Of a stretch of DNA of 64,000 nt, positions 1 to 9,090 are shown piece by piece. The translations under genes were made by a program, and so were the position numbers. The notes beneath the pieces are model-generated. The model was not told where the DNA came from, did no database searches, and worked only from the letters and a program-made list of their open reading frames with translations. The DNA is taken from positions 180,138-244,137 of the forward strand of contig DASRYH010000008.1 of the NCBI GenBank assembly GCA_035687245.1. The letters are read 5' to 3'. Position 1 is the stretch's first letter, and every line of letters starts with the position of its first letter. Source of the stretch: Coriobacteriia bacterium (GTDB taxonomy: Bacteria; Actinomycetota; Coriobacteriia; Anaerosomatales; PHET01).

Positions 1-396
1 CTCAGGATGATCTGGAAGGACCAAACCTACGTGGCAGCCTCAATCGACCAAGATTATGGTGTCGGCGTCGAAATGGCCAAGGGCTATGACGCTGCGGCCG
101 ACCTTTCAGGCGGAGAGGATGTCTGCTTGGCCCTGTCCTTCAGCCAGGCGCTTGGCCGAGTATCTGACTTCGACGTGCCGCTGGTCTTTGATAGCCCCCT
201 AGTCAAGGTCGATGACGAGGTGAAGGTGCTCGTTGCGCAGACGATGCTCAAGAACCTGAACGGACGCCAGCTCATACTGCTTATGAAGCCGGACGAGTTT
301 GGTGCAGTTGAGAGCACTTTCGTCGAGAGCGGGGTCTCATCGGTGGTTCGAATTGAATTTGACGAAGCAGCCCAGTCGACCACGGTGGTGATCTAG
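1..396 (+). CDS. C-terminal fragment (5' end outside window) of an SMC/ABC-type ATPase resembling DndD-family proteins
   Basis: The frame is open to nt 1. The translation has an ABC-signature-like LSGGE, then about 25 aa later VPLVFDSPLVKVDD (hydrophobic-D Walker B/D-loop), then QLILLMKPDEF. Order and spacing match the LSxGE...PhhhDTPLGRLD...QhhhLSTDxE C-terminus I recall for DndD/SMC-like ATPases. The TAG stop (394-396) overlaps the GTG of the next ORF by 1 nt. Confidence 0.6.
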   Translation, partial: LRMIWKDQTYVAASIDQDYGVGVEMAKGYDAAADLSGGEDVCLALSFSQALGRVSDFDVPLVFDSPLVKVDDEVKVLVAQTMLKNLNGRQLILLMKPDEFGAVESTFVESGVSSVVRIEFDEAAQSTTVVI

Positions 397-818
397 TGGC
401 TCAGAGAGACCGTGTATACATCGACGGCGAACGCCGCGGTGAATTTGAGACCCTTGCGCGCCGAATGGGCGGCGTGGACAACAAGGACGCATTTCTCTTT
501 GCTATGTCATATGGTTTCGCTCACGGTATGCGCAAGCCGTTCAGGGATCGGTACGGCTTCGTGCTGTCTAAGTACTTCAACGAGGAAGACCACTGCCTAA
601 TGGCAGCGGTGGCGATGGCAGGGCGAGATGAGATTAGCGAGGACTTCTCGATGGATGAGGCATACGGCATCGCGGAGGAGTACGCCCGCGGTGGCATCGG
701 GCTACTGAGAGAGCAACTCGCTGACGGCGTTGAGTTCCGTGAGAACTTGTCAATCGAGGTTCTTCAGACAGCCGCAGGGCTAGCGATAAGTGAACGAAGC
801 GGGGATGCAACAGAGTGA
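396..818 (+). CDS. Small (140 aa) hypothetical protein, possibly DndE-like DNA-binding protein
   Basis: GTG start overlaps the upstream stop (TAGTG) and its stop overlaps the next start (GTGA at 815-818). It sits directly after the DndD-like ATPase, as dndE follows dndD. The segment GGVDNKDAFLFAMSYGFAHG ... YFNEEDHCLMAAVAMAG loosely parallels my recollection of DndE (GITPNVLCRFALMYSLEEG ... EFNAYTLTGEY..LL.ALV). The assignment comes from memory only and is weak. Confidence 0.45.
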   Translation: MAQRDRVYIDGERRGEFETLARRMGGVDNKDAFLFAMSYGFAHGMRKPFRDRYGFVLSKYFNEEDHCLMAAVAMAGRDEISEDFSMDEAYGIAEEYARGGIGLLREQLADGVEFRENLSIEVLQTAAGLAISERSGDATE

Positions 819-2047
819 GCAAGATCCTGCTGGTTCAACCCAGATTCCCGCTGCCCGCCAAGAGCCTGAACCACAAGGACTACTTGCCGATCGGGCTTCT
901 GAAGCTCTCGACCTGGCACAAGGAGCAGGGTGACGAAGTTCAGGCCGACTTCGGTGTGTATCGCATTCGCGAGGACTGGGTACCAGACACTATTTACGTC
1001 ACGTCCCTGTTCACCTACTGGGCAAATGCTGTTCGTGAGGCTGTACGCTTCTATCGGGATGCGTATGGCAGTGGCGCGGAGATTGTCGTCGGAGGCATAT
1101 ATGCCTCCCTTGAACCGGTGCACTGCAAGCAGCACACCGGATGCGACCGCGTCCATGAGGGTGTCCACGTGCAGGCGGAAGCGTTGTCACACACTCTGGC
1201 ACCCGACTACGGCCTACTGGAGCCAGAGCCGGAGTTCCAAATTGTCCATGCCTCGAGGGGCTGCATCCGCAAATGCACGTTCTGTGGAACTCATAGAATC
1301 GAGGAGGAGTTTCTGCCAAAGGCCTCCATCATGAGTGAGTTGAAGAAGAACCACTTGGTCTTCTACGACAACAACCTTCTGGCCAATCCCTACATCGGGG
1401 ACATCTTTGAGGAAATCGCGTCAACAAGAATGCATGGCCGTGTCATCACTTGTGAGAGCCAGAGCGGGATAGATGGGCGAATACTCCGAAAGGAACCGCA
1501 TCTCGCCGCTGCGATGAAGCGAGCTAGATTCAAGAATGTCCGCATCGCATGGGACGCGGGATTGGGTGAGCGGGGACGGGTTGCAGAGCAGCTTCAGATC
1601 CTCGAAGATGCGGGATTCTCCCGCAAGGAGATCCAGGTCTTCATGATCTACAACCATGACCTCGATCCCGAGGTGATGGTGGAGAAGGCGCAGCAGTGCT
1701 TCGATTGGGGCGTGCAAGTCTCAGATTGTCGCTACCGCCCGCTCGATGCCTTCAGTGACGGTTATCGGCCAATGAAGAAGTCGCAGGATCGTGGTGAGTA
1801 TCACATCCACCCGAACTGGTCTGACGCAGACGTAAGAGCTTTTCGTCGCCTCGTTCGCGAAAACAACATCTGCATTCGCTACGGCATTCCGAAAGACAGA
1901 TACGATCAGCGGCTTGAGGGCTTCTCAAGGCATGCTCGGGTTGAGATCGCTGAGATGCTTGGAATTGACGGACGCCTCAAGCACTCAGACTCGGAGCTCG
2001 CTCGAATCAATGAGGAATGGCTCAAGTCGCGCGAGGTGCATGGGTGA
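815..2047 (+). CDS. B12-binding-domain-type (class B-like) radical SAM protein
   Basis: The N-terminus (KILLVQPRFP...DYLPIGLLKLSTWHKEQGDEV...PDTIYVTS...IVVGGIYASLEP) has the pattern of the B12-binding-like Rossmann domain of class B radical SAM enzymes. It is followed by HASRGCIRKCTFCG, a CxxxCxxC 4Fe-4S/SAM motif. Both junctions are GTGA 4-nt overlaps. Confidence 0.8.
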   Translation: MSKILLVQPRFPLPAKSLNHKDYLPIGLLKLSTWHKEQGDEVQADFGVYRIREDWVPDTIYVTSLFTYWANAVREAVRFYRDAYGSGAEIVVGGIYASLEPVHCKQHTGCDRVHEGVHVQAEALSHTLAPDYGLLEPEPEFQIVHASRGCIRKCTFCGTHRIEEEFLPKASIMSELKKNHLVFYDNNLLANPYIGDIFEEIASTRMHGRVITCESQSGIDGRILRKEPHLAAAMKRARFKNVRIAWDAGLGERGRVAEQLQILEDAGFSRKEIQVFMIYNHDLDPEVMVEKAQQCFDWGVQVSDCRYRPLDAFSDGYRPMKKSQDRGEYHIHPNWSDADVRAFRRLVRENNICIRYGIPKDRYDQRLEGFSRHARVEIAEMLGIDGRLKHSDSELARINEEWLKSREVHG

Positions 2048-4491
2048 GCGTCTTTGACGATCCGTCTGACTGGGGCGTGGGACCCACGGGACTCTTCGGA
2101 CGAGTAGTTCGGTATCCGAGAAGGGGACAGGCTCTCGTGCCTGTCGCTCTTCAAAGGGATCTGGACTTGGCCTTGCCATCGGGCTACAGACGCATTGGAT
2201 TCCGCCGCTATTCAGACCTGAACGAGAAGGTGTGGCATGCCTTCACCGAGCACGAATGCCTTTGCCTCGCAGACAAGGCATCCGCGGAATTGAGGAGTAT
2301 TCCTCCCGAGCGTCTGTCCATCGGACCGCGCAAACTCGGGGAATTGTACGGGAGTGAGTCTCCAGCCAATCCCATCGTACTGGGCGCGCGCTCCTGGAAT
2401 CGATTTAGGCTCGGAAGAATCACGACCTGGAGTCAGATGGCTGAGATGACACCGAGTGATCTGCTCTCGATTCGCAGCTTTGGGACTAAGGCGCTGCTTG
2501 ATGTTCTGGTCGCCACGGAGTCCGCCTTCTGGAGTCAGCCTCAAGCCCCTGAGCCGAGCATCAGCCGGATTGTCACGACTCCTTGGAGACGAAGTCCGAG
2601 CCGCTTTCCGAGGCCGACACACAGCCTGGTGCCTCGTGTACTTGCGCCGCTACTTCAGTGCGCCATGCCGTCAGGACTTCAGCGCTCTGGGTTCTCGAAC
2701 TTCGGGGACTTGGATGACCGCGTATGGTCTGTCTACCAGCCGATAGAGATCGTGCGGCTGACGGATCTCGCCGCCAGTGCAGTACAGGGCGTGCGTACAT
2801 CGCTTCCACCCAAACTAGGCCTCGCGCAGCTCCAGGACCTTTTTGCGCTGGAGGGTGGCCAAGTTGACTTGACTGTCAGAACAAGGAATTGCCTTGGGCG
2901 AGCAGGCCTCAACACTTGGGAGAGACTCGGCGCAGCAACCATTAGTGAGATCCTGTCTATTGGCGGTTTTGGCGCTCTGAGCTTCATGGACCTGCTGACC
3001 TCGATTGAGTCCATCTCACGCCTGAATCCTCTCGAGGATTCCATCTACTCTCGCAGACGAGTTCTAGAGCCGCTTGATCTGGGTTCTCGTCCGTTGGACG
3101 TGGCTCTTCGAGAAGTACTCTGTCAGGCGGCCAAGAACGAACGCGCAAGCGAGATGATGCTATTGCGCCACGGCTGGGGTGGAACGGCACCGCTGACACT
3201 CGAGGAAACCGCACGCCGGTTCGGCGTCACTCGCGAGCGCATTCGACAGATTTGCAAGAAGGTAGAGTCTCGGATCTTGGAGGCGGGTGTAGCGGGGACC
3301 GCACTCACCGATGCGCTGGCTGTAGCTGGATCCAGCATCCCGATGGACAAGGCGCTGCTGGAGAGGACCTTGCTTACGCAGGGGCTTGTTCAAGACGCCT
3401 TCTCAGTGGAGTCACTGCTCGATGCGGCGCGGTTCTTCGGCGCAGAAGCCAGCTTCCGTATACGGGGTGACCAGGTCGTCTCGCTGGATAGTGTGACTGA
3501 CGAGGATGATATCGGCGACGCGATTCACTCGCTGATGTCACGCTGTTCAATTCGTGCGTACGCCGACCTAGTTTGCGCCGCTGGCGCTGAAGAGTCCCAT
3601 GATGACGATCTGCGCCATGCCATTGATGAGGACCCGGAACTCCTATGGCTTGATGATGAGAGAAGCTGGGTCGGGATGCCGTCCTTAGTGGCCACCAAGG
3701 ATCGAGTTGGCAACCGACTGAGGAAAGCCCTGGCTATGGCTGACACCGCACTCTCAATAGAGTCGATGGTCGATGCTGTAGGTAGAGACAGGCGAGGCGT
3801 CGAGGTTCCAAGCTCAGTGATGCAGGTGTATGCGACGAACAGCCCGTGGCTGCAGCAGGATGGGGCTCGTTTCGCTGCGGCCCCACCACTTAGGGGCGAG
3901 GAAGTTCTTCAGGGCGCGGAGCTTCAACTGGTCCGGGCGCTTAGGGATGAAGGCGGCATTGCACACCTCCACGATCTATGGTCCGTCGCCTATCGGCTGG
4001 GAGTGGGGAAGGTGAACTTCCACCGCTTGCTCGCCGAGTCTCCATGCGTAGTCAAACACGGGCCTTGTGTGTACGGGCTCAGGGGTGCGGACGTTTCGGC
4101 AAACGAAGTGTACGAGCGCGTACGTGAGGTCGAGAAGCATCGAGCGGTTCGTCTTGGAGGCAGTGGCCCGGTCACCTGGGTACTGTGGCGTCTCGCGGCC
4201 AGCGGCATCCGTATGGGGCGATGTAGTCTCCGGCAAGTGCCCTCAGGGCTAGTCGAGGGCACATATGACGTTCGGGTCGACGAGTCCGGGCCAAGCTTTC
4301 CGGTGAGAGTCGAAGACAACATAGTCTGCGGCGCCCTTGGAAGTCTCCTTAGAGTCATAGAGGCGTCTTCTGGCCGCCTGCTGCTACTTGTACTTGATGG
4401 CGCATCAATGTCCGGGACAGGAATGCTGGTCGGCGATCAATGGTCAATTGCCGACGATGACGAGATCGATGAGTTGGTCGGAACCCTCTGA
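2044..4491 (+). CDS. Large multidomain protein: two RNA polymerase alpha-CTD-like (HhH) modules + sigma-70 region 4.2-like HTH + unassigned C-terminal half
   Basis: The start could be ATG 2017 (31-nt overlap) or GTG 2044 (GTGA overlap with the radical SAM stop). I prefer 2044 because every other junction in this operon is an overlap of this kind. [49 protein letters not shown] aligns residue for residue with E. coli alpha-CTD [48 protein letters not shown]. A weaker copy is [72 protein letters not shown] matches sigma-70 region 4.2 ([27 protein letters not shown]). Confidence 0.7.
   Translation: [815 protein letters not shown]
2131..3012 (+). repeat. Intragenic tandem duplication of a module of about 130 aa (about 2131-2523 and 2623-3012)
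   Basis: [38 protein letters not shown] and [38 protein letters not shown] share 16 of 38 identical positions in my hand alignment. Each copy ends in an alpha-CTD-like HhH motif. Confidence 0.6.
3193..3279 (+). other. Sigma-70 region 4.2-like helix-turn-helix segment inside the large protein
   Basis: It translates as [38 protein letters not shown] is the hallmark core of sigma-70 region 4.2. Confidence 0.7.
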
Positions 4492-4845: not shown

Positions 4846-5244
4846 TCAGCCGATTCCCAATTCCTTCAGAACCAAGGCGACTGCGTCCACCGTGGCTGGC
4901 TGGCCGAAGTGATACTTGCGATGACAACTTGCACACAGCGAGATGCACACGCTCGCGTCGATATCAGTGCGTGATTGTCGCTCCCATTTTGAGTAGACGT
5001 GGTGATTGTCCAACGCGCCCTGGTAGTCCTCGCCGCAGACAACGCACGGTCTTCGTTTGCGGGGACGCCTCTGTGGGTTGGCCGCAGGCAGAGGAGCGGG
5101 CCGCCCGGTGCGACCTATTGCCAACCGCGGCTGTCGGACAGAACCACCCCGTATCTCCGCGATCCACTCACCATAGTGTGACGAGAGCCACTCACTTGGT
5201 GGGGTCCACTCGGGTTCGTGCTCTGTCACGCGAGGTCCCCTCAC
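4846..5244 (-). CDS. HNH endonuclease family protein
   Basis: CVVCGE...DNHHV...LCASCHRKYH forms a Cys-pair / His-Asn-His type HNH motif in a basic 132-aa protein. It is on the opposite strand to the surrounding island genes. Confidence 0.65.
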   Translation of the reverse strand: MRGPRVTEHEPEWTPPSEWLSSHYGEWIAEIRGGSVRQPRLAIGRTGRPAPLPAANPQRRPRKRRPCVVCGEDYQGALDNHHVYSKWERQSRTDIDASVCISLCASCHRKYHFGQPATVDAVALVLKELGIG

Positions 5245-6461: not shown

Positions 6462-6659
6462 ATGAACCTCGATAACGCGGAAGAAGTCCTGACGATCAGC
6501 GAGGTGGCGAAGCTCCTCCGTATTGGACGCAACACGGCATATCGCATGGCGAAGCGGAAGACGATCCCGACCCTCAGTCTTGGCCGCCGCCTGGTAGTGC
6601 CGAAGCGAGCACTTCTCATCATGCTCTCTGATGGCTGTTCGTTCGTCGGAGTGCAGTAG
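6462..6659 (+). CDS. Excisionase/MerR-like helix-turn-helix DNA-binding protein (Xis-like)
   Basis: ATG 6462 is preceded by AAAGGA. The 65-aa product contains LTISEVAKLLRIGRNTAYRMAKRKTIPTLSLGRRLVVPK, typical of the excisionase-family HTH_17 pattern. Its stop is immediately followed by the ATG of the next gene (TAG-ATG at 6657-6662). Confidence 0.7.
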   Translation: MNLDNAEEVLTISEVAKLLRIGRNTAYRMAKRKTIPTLSLGRRLVVPKRALLIMLSDGCSFVGVQ

Positions 6660-7827: not shown

Positions 7828-8967
7828 TTGGAAATGGAAAAGACATCGAGCGGAAGGTACAAGGTCCGCATCTGGGACAAGCATCTCTGCAAGAAGGTCT
7901 ACGTAGGGACCTATCCCACGAAGACCGCCGCCAGGACGGCAGGGACGCAAGCTGAGCTTCGATTGCTCACTTTCGGTCACCTGCCCGAGCACAAGGACAT
8001 CACGCTGGTCGCTCTGTGCGATCGCTACATCGAGATGAACCCTCAGCTCCGCACAAGCACGATCGACTGGTATGCGAATGCGCTCAAGAAGGCACGCGCC
8101 TTCTTTGGCGATGAGGCCAGTGTCAGACGTATGTCCAAGGAAGACATGCAGTCCTACGTTTCGAGCCTCATTTCTCAGAAGAAGGCATCGAAGACGGTCG
8201 TGGGCTACCTCAAGGCACTCGGGGCGGTGTTCGAGCAGGCGGTTGAGTGGGGCTATCGCGAGAGCAATCCCTGCCGCAAGCTCCGCAATCTACCGGAGAA
8301 CCGGCGAGCAGATGACGCAATCCGCGTACTGAGCACCACGGAGCACGCACGATTGGCGGATTCGGCCCCGGGTCACTACAGGACGATGGTATCGGTGTGG
8401 CCTTTCATCGGACTTCGCCGCTCAGAGATGCAGGGCCTGCGGTGGGAAGACGTCGACTTGGTTGGTGGCCGGCTGCACGTAAGGCACCAGCTCCGTGAGG
8501 ACGGAAGCCTCGATCCTAACCTCAAAACGCGTAAGTCCCGGCGAACGATCGTGATGCCGCAAAACGTAGTGAACGAGCTTCGCAAGTGGCGCTTGGAGAG
8601 CAAGCCCAACCTGCTCGACCTCGTCTTCCCAACGCAGCAGGGTCTGCCGCAAACCTCTAAGCCGAACTTCTACAGTTGGTGGAACAAGGCGTGTGCAAAG
8701 GCAGGCCTCGCCGGCTGCAATCCCCACGACATGCGGCACACTTTCGCCACGTGGTCTTTGGCGGCAGGGGAGAACCCCAAACGGGTCGCCGACGAGATGG
8801 GGCACGAGAAGACGTCGATGATGCTCGACACGTATCTTCACCTGCTCGTTGACGACAATGTAGGGGGTACAAAGCGGCTCGAGGAATGGTACTATTCTCA
8901 GGCTGCTACGAGCGGGATGGATGCAAGTACCGCCCCTATACCGCCCCTGAAGGCCTCAAACGCCTGA
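7828..8967 (+). CDS. Tyrosine recombinase / phage-type integrase
   Basis: The N-terminal SAM-like core-binding region is followed by the catalytic domain: GLRRSE (Arg I), HDMRHTFATWSL (His-x-x-Arg) and GHEKTSMMLDTYLHL (His ... catalytic Tyr). The start is TTG 7828 or ATG 7834. The gene ends 47 nt before tRNA-Pro. Confidence 0.85.
   Translation: MEMEKTSSGRYKVRIWDKHLCKKVYVGTYPTKTAARTAGTQAELRLLTFGHLPEHKDITLVALCDRYIEMNPQLRTSTIDWYANALKKARAFFGDEASVRRMSKEDMQSYVSSLISQKKASKTVVGYLKALGAVFEQAVEWGYRESNPCRKLRNLPENRRADDAIRVLSTTEHARLADSAPGHYRTMVSVWPFIGLRRSEMQGLRWEDVDLVGGRLHVRHQLREDGSLDPNLKTRKSRRTIVMPQNVVNELRKWRLESKPNLLDLVFPTQQGLPQTSKPNFYSWWNKACAKAGLAGCNPHDMRHTFATWSLAAGENPKRVADEMGHEKTSMMLDTYLHLLVDDNVGGTKRLEEWYYSQAATSGMDASTAPIPPLKASNA

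Positions 8968-9013: not shown

Positions 9014-9090
<77 letters not shown>

Follow-up and report, generated by a model that had tools for sequence, protein, structure and literature searches.

A radical SAM protein with a B12-binding-like domain in a Pbe-type operon of a Coriobacteriia bacterium: a candidate DNA self-marking enzyme found beside several defence modules

The PbeABCD (CxC) systems comprise PbeA, an HKD endonuclease fused to a superfamily 2 (SF2) helicase, PbeB, a small disordered protein, PbeC, a CxC-type ABC ATPase, and PbeD, a cognate of DndE; they are paired with the DndCDEA phosphorothioation genes or with C5 or N4 cytosine methylases (PMC10853773; Krishnan, Burroughs and Aravind 2024). 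Here we describe a 64,000-nucleotide (nt) stretch of the genome of a Coriobacteriia bacterium (GenBank assembly GCA_035687245.1, contig DASRYH010000008.1, positions 180,138 to 244,137 of the forward strand), further referred to as the window, whose left edge cuts into an operon of this kind. The operon contains a gene for a radical S-adenosylmethionine (SAM) protein, further referred to as rSAM. We give about an even chance to the reading that rSAM is the DNA self-marking (modification) subunit of a mobile Pbe-type restriction-like defence system. What would be new here is a restriction-like defence in which modification is the task of a radical SAM enzyme. The genes of the operon, in window coordinates and with protein lengths in amino acids (aa), are as follows.

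1–396, forward strand: C-terminal end of a PbeC-type (CxC, DndD-like) ABC ATPase, whose gene runs off the left window edge (PADLOC PbeC 5.9e-19, DndD 3.5e-8; TIGR03185 DndD 3.8e-9).
396–818, forward strand: PbeD-like protein (dnd_assoc_4, DndE cognate), 140 aa (TIGR04062 4.6e-6, below cut-off; PF27807 DNA_S_mod_dnd_assoc_4 on the identical gene).
815–2047, forward strand: rSAM, with a B12-binding-like Rossmann domain (nt 815 to about 1219), a radical SAM partial barrel (nt about 1232 to 1804) and a basic helical C-terminal region.
1262–1285, forward strand: CxxxCxxC motif of rSAM (CIRKCTFC, aa 150–157), the ligands of the [4Fe-4S]/SAM cluster, invariant in aligned family members.
2044–4491, forward strand: 815-aa multi-domain DNA-binding protein with two RNA polymerase alpha C-terminal domain (CTD)-like units, sigma-70 region 4 (MzaA-like), tandem winged helices and a C-terminal B3-like barrel.

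The open reading frame (ORF) called on the window starts with GTG and encodes 410 aa. The gene call on an identical Logan contig (L001) has the same start, and the source protein is an entry from a Coriobacteriia metagenome-assembled genome (MAG) with 100% identity (P0001). The sequence GTGA at 815–818 holds both the GTG start of rSAM (815–817) and the TGA stop of the upstream gene (816–818), and in the GTGA at 2044–2047 the TGA stop of rSAM (2045–2047) overlaps with the GTG at 2044 that opens the downstream gene. In the relatives L002, L004 and L008, whose rSAM is 54–57% identical to that of the window, the gene order is PbeA, a small protein, PbeC, PbeD, rSAM and a large protein with sigma-70 region 4. 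The 4-nt overlaps at both ends and the same order in relatives agree with the preliminary description of this DNA, according to which the gene belongs to the operon.

Cysteines C150, C154 and C157 of the CxxxCxxC motif are invariant in both alignments that we built (39 of 39 and 84 of 84 homologues). The AlphaFold (AF2) model of the protein, built on 39 sequences, has a mean predicted local distance difference test score (pLDDT) of 91.5 and consists of a five-stranded Rossmann-like N-terminal domain (aa 1 to about 135), a six-unit beta/alpha partial barrel and a helical basic C-terminal region. When the model was compared with viral models by Foldseek, the best matches were an MtaB-type methylthiotransferase and COG1032 'Fe-S oxidoreductases' (template modelling score about 0.53); comparison with PDB yielded weak generic matches alone (LipA, MoaA, NifB, TIM-barrel and B12-domain proteins), and no usable solved structure related by sequence was found with the protein or the family profile. 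Pfam Radical_SAM (PF04055) matched the window protein with E = 5e-4 and 20.7 bits (gathering cut-off 29.5), and B12-binding (PF02310) with E = 2e-3 and 18.3 bits (cut-off 32.1). In precomputed Pfam annotation PF04055 is recorded for many homologues, and PF02310 for roughly half of those listed. The invariant motif and the B12-binding-like N-terminal domain, both of which are kept in all homologues, support the earlier assignment of rSAM to class B-like (B12-domain) radical SAM proteins.

The classical cobalamin fingerprint is SxL-(26–28)-GG. In the 84-sequence alignment T63-S64-L65 and G93-G94 are invariant, with 29 residues from S64 to G93; this near-canonical spacing is suggestive, and only suggestive, of the fingerprint. 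The invariant polar residues are DNN185–187, Q216, G218, D220, R222, AWD245–247, DCRxRP304–309, W335, R344, R348 and N351, and the alignments contain no variable region; this would suit an unvarying substrate, e.g. a nucleotide in DNA, in which case any sequence specificity would come from the partners. An auxiliary four-cysteine Fe-S cluster (C104, C110, C295, C305), hinted at by the 39-sequence alignment, was rejected: C104 and C110 are present in 67–69 of the 84 members and replaced by hydrophobic residues in about 20% of them, while C295 and C305 are present in 82–84, with C305 changed to Met in a sister clade. Four cluster representatives of the wider family (P0224, P0228, P0265 and P0274) carry inteins in or beside CxxxCxxC, e.g. 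...RGCVNKC-intein-CKFC...; no mention of such inteins in the rSAM motif was found in the open-access literature searched.

A word-indexed search retrieved 1929 rSAM homologues. The HMMER profile of the family, run against 1.84 billion representatives, matched 254, 1336 and 2947 clusters (50% identity) at E ≤ 1e-30, 1e-10 and 1e-3, respectively. Given these homologues and hundreds of clusters, the gene is not a chance ORF. B12-domain radical SAM proteins are abundant; since only 2947 clusters were matched at E ≤ 1e-3, the family appears to stand apart from most of them. Mean column identity of the 39 aligned sequences is 49% across Coriobacteriia, Omnitrophota, Atribacterota and DPANN archaea, and the scan of GTDB genomes added methanogens, Bathyarchaeia, Elusimicrobia, Planctomycetes and candidate phyla radiation (CPR) bacteria to the hosts.

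The closest described enzymes by architecture are those of class B (TsrM, Fom3, PhpK, TokK/ThnK, HpnR, BchE, and the uncharacterised TIGR04013 or MJ_1487 family), in which a Rossmann-like domain is likewise followed by a CxxxCxxC barrel. The rSAM family differs from them in being much shorter (365–410 aa), in scoring tens of bits where cut-offs are at least 250, and in a context of defence and DNA instead of metabolism or ribosomally synthesized and post-translationally modified peptides (RiPPs). Among the 39 members, NCBIfam TIGR04013 (B12-binding/radical SAM) weakly matched 33 (best E = 4.1e-7; 19.3 bits for the window protein vs a cut-off of 251), BchE 22, the ladderane B12 radical SAM model 17, and PhpK, HpnR and BzaD five each. 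No curated NCBIfam family, including methyl-coenzyme M reductase (MCR) Gln C-methyltransferase, matched any of them above the cut-off. Tight clustering with a characterised metabolic or RiPP subgroup, which the preliminary description had named as evidence to the contrary, was thus not observed, the best NCBIfam match (4e-7) being far below every cut-off.

PbeC and PbeD in the window mark the operon as one of the PbeABCD kind; in relatives these two are joined by PbeA and a small PbeB-like gene, arranged as published. PbeA and PbeB are not visible in the window because it begins inside PbeC. Full-length PbeC orthologues in relatives are about 660 aa long and have an invariant CxC in the middle of the protein; the 396–818 protein clusters with the gene that comes after PbeC in 19 loci; the PbeA homologue of locus L064 matched TIGR04095 dnd_restrict_1 with 1.4e-121. 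The gene upstream of rSAM had previously been called DndE-like; it is a DndE cognate, but it is PbeD, and PbeC and PbeD are paralogues of DndD and DndE. Likewise, rSAM does stand where a modification function is expected, but the operon is a PbeABCD/CxC-ABC-ATPase cassette and not a Dnd operon deprived of DndA and DndC. DndC and DndA/IscS were found neither in the window operon, which distinguishes it from Dnd modification, nor, by precomputed Pfam annotation, in the 10-kb flanks of relatives. No DNA methylase genes were found in the 10-kb flanks of L002, L004 and L008.

Alternatively, rSAM might provide another route of phosphorothioation or sulfur insertion which replaces DndC and DndA, PbeABCD then reading phosphorothioate. 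Indeed, PbeABCD is described as dependent on Dnd phosphorothioation (Xiong et al. 2019, as summarised in PMC10853773), rSAM partners are paralogues of DndD, DndE and DndB, and the overall fold resembles methylthiotransferases. We regard this route as very improbable. An auxiliary Fe-S cluster is required by radical SAM enzymes that insert sulfur, whereas rSAM has no conserved set of three or four cysteines; it also lacks a TRAM domain, MiaB and RimO models weakly match one or two of the 39 members, and no cysteine desulfurase was found in the flanks of relatives. More generally, rSAM resembles MtaB in its two-domain fold but shows no significant sequence relation to RNA- or DNA-acting radical SAM enzymes (spore photoproduct lyase, RlmN/Cfr, MiaB/MtaB, the enzymes of phage thymidine hypermodification) and has neither auxiliary-cluster cysteines nor a TRAM domain. 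The missing cysteines and desulfurase would agree with the earlier proposal that the chemistry is other than phosphorothioation.

To retrieve such operons independently of rSAM, we scanned metagenomes with a PbeC alignment, PbeD being too divergent to serve as a query. The scan yielded 472 relatives, of which the best 80 were kept, and 51 loci having at least 2.5 kb after PbeC were counted. In 40 of these 51 loci (78%) a gene of the rSAM family lies within five genes of PbeC, mostly directly after PbeD; one locus of the 51 has a detectable methylase. The query PbeC sequences came from rSAM-linked loci, and so the sample leans to the rSAM-linked clade. Even with this bias, the five-gene combination of Pbe and rSAM is widespread rather than an accident of one locality. 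It is this radical SAM partner, in the window and in the 40 loci, that sets the operon apart from the PbeABCD systems of PMC10853773, where it is not mentioned in this role. Many of the metagenome loci have a PbeD of about 315 aa, double the usual size, and a conserved gene of 440–500 aa after rSAM; the loci with such PbeD (L155, L157, L158, L160, L165, L181, L184, L187, L189 and L205) form a distinct sub-architecture. A long form of rSAM (about 540 aa) is also attached to Pbe operons (L166, L173, L200). In the Methanobrevibacter loci L035 and L074 Pbe genes flank rSAM on both sides, and in five archaeal loci, three of them from Methanobrevibacter, rSAM is convergent with pbeDCBA, not co-directional.

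These statistics bear on a further explanation, namely that rSAM is an ordinary class B enzyme of metabolism or natural-product synthesis and a passenger in the island. The weak profile matches to the BchE, ladderane-lipid, HpnR, PhpK and BzaD models could be read in this way, but all of them are far below cut-offs. Further, the gene overlaps by 4 nt with both its neighbours, this neighbourhood is met again across dozens of phyla and in the 40 PbeC-fetched loci, and no biosynthetic genes were seen near rSAM in the flanks of relatives or in rSAM gene runs. The context statistics effectively refute this explanation.

The association of rSAM with defence modules extends beyond Pbe. The scan of GTDB species genomes found a relative in 168 species; 80 loci were kept, and the neighbouring genes were ORF-called, clustered and annotated. 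Counts of partners cover 83 non-redundant genome loci, with GHKL and ParB proteins separated by motif. PbeA-B-C-D stand beside rSAM in 21 loci. Another 20 loci pair rSAM with a GHKL ATPase (about 520 aa), in some cases together with an unannotated protein of 330 aa; the GHKL domain of the ATPase resembles that of the BbrUII/HgiDII-family restriction enzymes (1e-11). In 19 loci rSAM is accompanied by a ParB_N protein, which either has about 475 aa or has 330 aa and comes with an unannotated protein of 505 aa. Smaller groups are formed by DISARM genes DrmA (7e-112), DrmB (1.6e-20) and DrmC with an unannotated 1060-aa protein (four loci: L059, L071, L075, L084), by a ParB/DGQHR-like, SNF2, ParB/DGQHR-like array (three), by DGQHR-HEPN fusions (three) and by a HerA-like ATPase with a 386-aa partner following HsdM/HsdS (two); the rest are contig ends or ambiguous. 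The family is therefore a module common to at least six defence architectures, to phages and to methyltransferase fusions (see below), and is not tied to Pbe. One locus of a Thorarchaeota MAG (L087, 8676–11335) contains two tandem rSAM paralogues and no recognised partner.

Two of these architectures can be compared with described systems. The window itself has no DrmA, DrmB or DrmC, but in the four DISARM-like loci rSAM and the 1060-aa protein are found where the DrmMI or DrmMII methylase is expected: BLAST searches for four methylase families found no homologue in any of the four, and no DrmM was detected. Frequent pairing of rSAM with ParB_N or DGQHR proteins (DpdB match 1.6e-27, DGQHR match 5e-45) recalls that of DpdA with DpdB in the Dpd 7-deazaguanine system and DndB; rSAM differs in being a radical SAM protein instead of a tRNA-guanine transglycosylase (TGT)-fold enzyme, and preQ0 synthesis genes are absent. 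Among all 83 loci, homologues of DNA methyltransferases from the four families occur in 11. Five of the homologues are in the same gene run as rSAM and belong to adjacent type I or III systems, and in the Pbe locus L030 an N4/N6 methylase homologue is three genes off on the opposite strand. When the other genes in same-strand runs by rSAM were considered (a subset of 56, at least about 130 aa), three had methylase domains, amid typical defence-island content.

In 58 of 70 loci the gene upstream of rSAM is on the same strand and no more than 120 nt away; in 46 the distance is at most 20 nt, and overlaps of 4 nt are frequent. On the neighbor-joining tree of rSAM the partner types are interspersed, which implies that partners have been exchanged many times. 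A universal docking domain in all upstream partners was sought and rejected: profile-profile comparison linked the 475-aa ParB protein with the 330-aa one and with cluster c8, and c5 with c7, and found nothing common to PbeD, GHKL, c9, c36 and HerA.

Peptides are the substrates of many class B radical SAM enzymes, those of RiPP pathways among them. Similarly, rSAM might be a maturase which acts on a partner protein or peptide, e.g. the small disordered PbeB-like protein or the NTPase, and thereby arms or regulates the system. Tight translational coupling, which suggests a protein complex, and the small fast-evolving protein encoded in Pbe operons (PMC10853773), matched by genes of 60–76 aa in the loci studied here, would agree with such a function. 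Nevertheless, we find it quite improbable: the ParB, GHKL and phage contexts have no peptide or protein in common, the upstream partners share no domain, and rSAM remains about 50% identical across unrelated partners, which speaks for one substrate that they all share.

Prokaryotic viperins are radical SAM defence effectors. The rSAM protein might similarly be an effector: after detection of an invader by the NTPase partner it would damage the invading DNA with the 5'-deoxyadenosyl radical (hydrogen abstraction from deoxyribose, followed by strand breaks or lesions), or it would make an antiviral nucleotide in the manner of viperins, or drain SAM. The sensor-like NTPases vary while the gene 3' of them, rSAM, stays the same, a pattern known for shared defence effectors, and there are ParB-rSAM pairs with no recognised nuclease. 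Another radical SAM defence effector, Ophion, exists as well (bioRxiv 10.1101/2025.09.30.679545), although its architecture is different. On the other side, most partner modules already hold nucleases (HKD of PbeA, phospholipase D of DrmC, HEPN, NurA-like), and rSAM is similar neither to viperins nor to any PADLOC model, nor does its operon have the partner kinases, or the PHP and PRTase genes, of known radical SAM anti-phage systems; the scanned GHKL- and ParB-type partners and the unannotated c5/c7, c9 and c36 partners gave no PADLOC match either. We therefore consider an effector role unlikely, and its standing is lowered further by phages and fusions.

The scan of IMG/VR found 11 contigs with true members of the rSAM family (42–48% identity). 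Pbe, GHKL, ParB, DGQHR and DISARM partners are absent from all 11, which encode terminase, portal, primase and several DNA methylases. A C5 methylase gene directly follows rSAM in L095 and L096 and is within seven genes in 6 of the 11 contigs, and in L092 rSAM is directly followed by the large terminase subunit. An enzyme that phages carry alone amid DNA methylase and packaging genes is hard to square with DNA damage. Orphan anti-restriction methylases are distributed in phages as rSAM is here. In L090, L093 and L094 rSAM is followed by an overlapping gene whose product, another radical SAM protein (283 aa), belongs to the PA0069/Rv2578c family (4e-22; e.g. L094, 5101–5952) and also matches 'radical SAM mobile pair protein B' (1.7e-11), so that these contigs have a cassette of two radical SAM genes; we take the PA0069/Rv2578c family to be related to spore photoproduct lyase. 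Marinitoga camini virus 1, a cultured temperate virus (L142, KP836355.1, 37383–38465), has a gene for a homologue of 360 aa (31% identity) that converges with those annotated as HerA and Rad50/Mre11-associated exonuclease. In our reading the exonuclease is NurA-like, and the pairing of a HerA-like protein with rSAM resembles loci L046 and L048.

Fusions were sought among the 150 best cluster representatives of the profile search. P0245 (777 aa; GCA_054640675.1, encoded on an NCBI contig of 175 kb) joins an entire C5 DNA methyltransferase (M.HaeIII-like, 2.8e-29, whole length) to rSAM, with which the window protein aligns end to end (30% identity, E = 8e-41). In P0264/L150, found on two independent contigs, rSAM is followed by C5-methylase motifs IX–X (M.HhaI 266–315), and an overlapping upstream gene of 195 aa holds motifs I–VIII (DLFGGIGGF, GFPCQSFS, ENVKGL, QNRERVF). 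With motifs I–VIII upstream and IX–X downstream, rSAM takes the position of the target-recognition domain in a split C5 methyltransferase. Motifs resembling those of methylases are present in a small N-terminal part of P0257, and P0225 is a fusion of rSAM with ParB. Fusion to, and insertion into, C5 DNA methyltransferases point to base modification, against an effector, and to DNA, against a maturase.

A sister form of rSAM (about 540 aa, 25–27% identical to that of the window) was observed on plasmids of cultured aerobes, Novosphingobium, Rhizobium, Bradyrhizobium and Mesorhizobium, e.g. in L141 (NC_002033.1, pNL1, 62242–66382), L147 and L148, and in the IMG/VR contigs L103, L104, L106–L109 and L112. 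The gene order of this cluster is ParB-like, a small gene, DEAD/SNF2 helicase, ParB_N, DGQHR, rSAM and a GHKL 'ATP-binding' protein; the cluster is frequently accompanied by genes for a PIN-like protein and an ATPase.

DNA self-marking appears to be the best reading of rSAM because the partners are DNA-tracking and come without a modification gene, rSAM is near-core in the Pbe clade, phages carry it and it is fused to C5 methyltransferases. DNA as the substrate, the self-mark role, use of cobalamin and the kind of chemistry are what we infer. In the proposed mechanism the [4Fe-4S] cluster and SAM would generate the 5'-deoxyadenosyl radical, cobalamin probably being held by the N-terminal domain, and rSAM would install a covalent group on DNA. 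The most plausible chemistry would be C-alkylation of a base carbon, e.g. of the C5-methyl of thymine or 5-methylcytosine; alkylation of a pyrimidine C5-methyl is an attractive guess given the B12-like domain and the class B precedent for extending methyl groups. The chemistry of the 5'-deoxyadenosyl radical on DNA and RNA bases has precedent, including the methyl group of thymine. Radical SAM enzymes that act on nucleic acids include those of phage thymidine hypermodification (PMC5889632). PbeC, as a DNA-tracking ABC ATPase, and PbeD would bring rSAM to DNA, as DndD and DndE serve DndC/DndA, and PbeA, as an HKD nuclease and SF2 helicase, would act on DNA that lacks the mark. In the Coriobacteriia lineage the large protein with multiple helix-turn-helix (HTH) domains would have been added, perhaps for targeting or sensing.

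Several considerations weigh against rSAM being a DNA self-marking subunit. Pfam and NCBIfam matches of the window protein to B12-binding and radical SAM models are sub-threshold, and cobalamin binding cannot be read from sequence. CPR bacteria and DPANN archaea have reduced metabolism, and the supply of cobalamin is doubtful in many hosts (CPR, DPANN, phages). Sequence-specific methylases normally have variable target-recognition domains, and rSAM has none. The methyltransferase fusions belong to the sister clade (about 30% identity) and not to the window's own clade, and some loci have both rSAM and an adjacent type I methylase. Effector domains of the partners' own (HEPN) would also suit an effector or regulator role of rSAM. 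Finally, we know of no modified nucleoside for the rSAM family. No description of rSAM in a defence or DNA-modification role was found in open-access literature, an earlier mention in subscription journals being possible; this role is absent from PMC10853773, the YprA/DISARM preprint, the Ophion preprint, the EVE-domain paper and the ProPhylo paper.

With a probability somewhat short of even, we extend self-marking to the whole family: a compact, probably cobalamin-dependent rSAM would write a new covalent mark on DNA, which would serve as the 'self' label of Pbe, DISARM-like, GHKL, ParB/DGQHR and HerA-NurA systems, and phages would have captured rSAM as counter-defence. Candidate marks are a 5-ethyl-type base, that is, thymine or 5-methylcytosine alkylated at the C5-methyl, or a base functionalised at that methyl without oxygen, the substitution of radical SAM enzymes for O2-dependent ones having parallels in anaerobes. 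The systems sharing the label would be chiefly those of anaerobic bacteria and archaea. The chance is substantial that such a mark would be of a chemically novel kind.

The operon is bordered downstream by the following genes of the island.

6462–6659, forward strand: HTH_17 (excisionase-like), mobile-element backbone (precomputed Pfam, identical Logan contig L001).
6660–7649, forward strand: AAA_25 ATPase, mobile-element backbone (precomputed Pfam, same contig).
7828–8967, forward strand: tyrosine integrase of the island (PF00589 Phage_integrase).
9014–9090, forward strand: tRNA-Pro(GGG), likely the integration site and the right-hand border of the island (ARAGORN).

The relatives L002 and L003 likewise have an integrase gene downstream of the operon, and the G+C content is 56–60% across 1–10 kb vs 62–66% further on in the window. 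The operon sits on an integrative element that abuts tRNA-Pro. On the reverse strand at 4846–5244, convergent with the operon, there is an ORF of 132 aa with an HNH-like pattern (CVVCG...NHH...CASCH); it is supported solely by marginal similarity to the HNH region of McrA (E = 0.33), and it is not conserved in related islands.

The product of the gene downstream of rSAM (2044–4491) had been recognised in advance as a DNA-binding protein, which its two RNA polymerase alpha CTD-like units and sigma-70 region 4 confirm. Its model (pLDDT 75) has SelB-like tandem winged helices and a C-terminal B3-like barrel, and no catalytic domain was recognised by domain scans and in the model. This 815-aa type of protein follows rSAM in eight loci only, all from a subclade of Actinomycetota. 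Elsewhere its homologues belong to a cassette of a gene of about 195 aa, a GHKL ATPase of about 550 aa and a sigma-like protein of 720–955 aa (L143, L145, L146). The cassette is similar to a portion of the MZA system and might constitute an independent defence system. Given these homologues, the 2044–4491 protein is best seen as a separate defence-type module recruited in this lineage.

The known self/non-self marks on prokaryotic DNA are few: classical methylation, phosphorothioation and 7-deazaguanines. If rSAM is a DNA self-marking enzyme, a mark written by radical SAM chemistry would be a further kind among them. It would explain how many Pbe, DISARM-like, GHKL and ParB-type systems that have no methylase discriminate between self and foreign DNA. 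Tractable entry points are the five-gene Pbe-rSAM operon, the natural methyltransferase-rSAM fusions and the sister system on plasmids of cultured bacteria (pNL1 of Novosphingobium aromaticivorans, pCC511_1 of Rhizobium sophoriradicis, and plasmids of Bradyrhizobium). The genomes of organisms such as Methanobrevibacter and Coriobacteriia, and those derived from sediments, would then carry a modification that current sequencing pipelines overlook.

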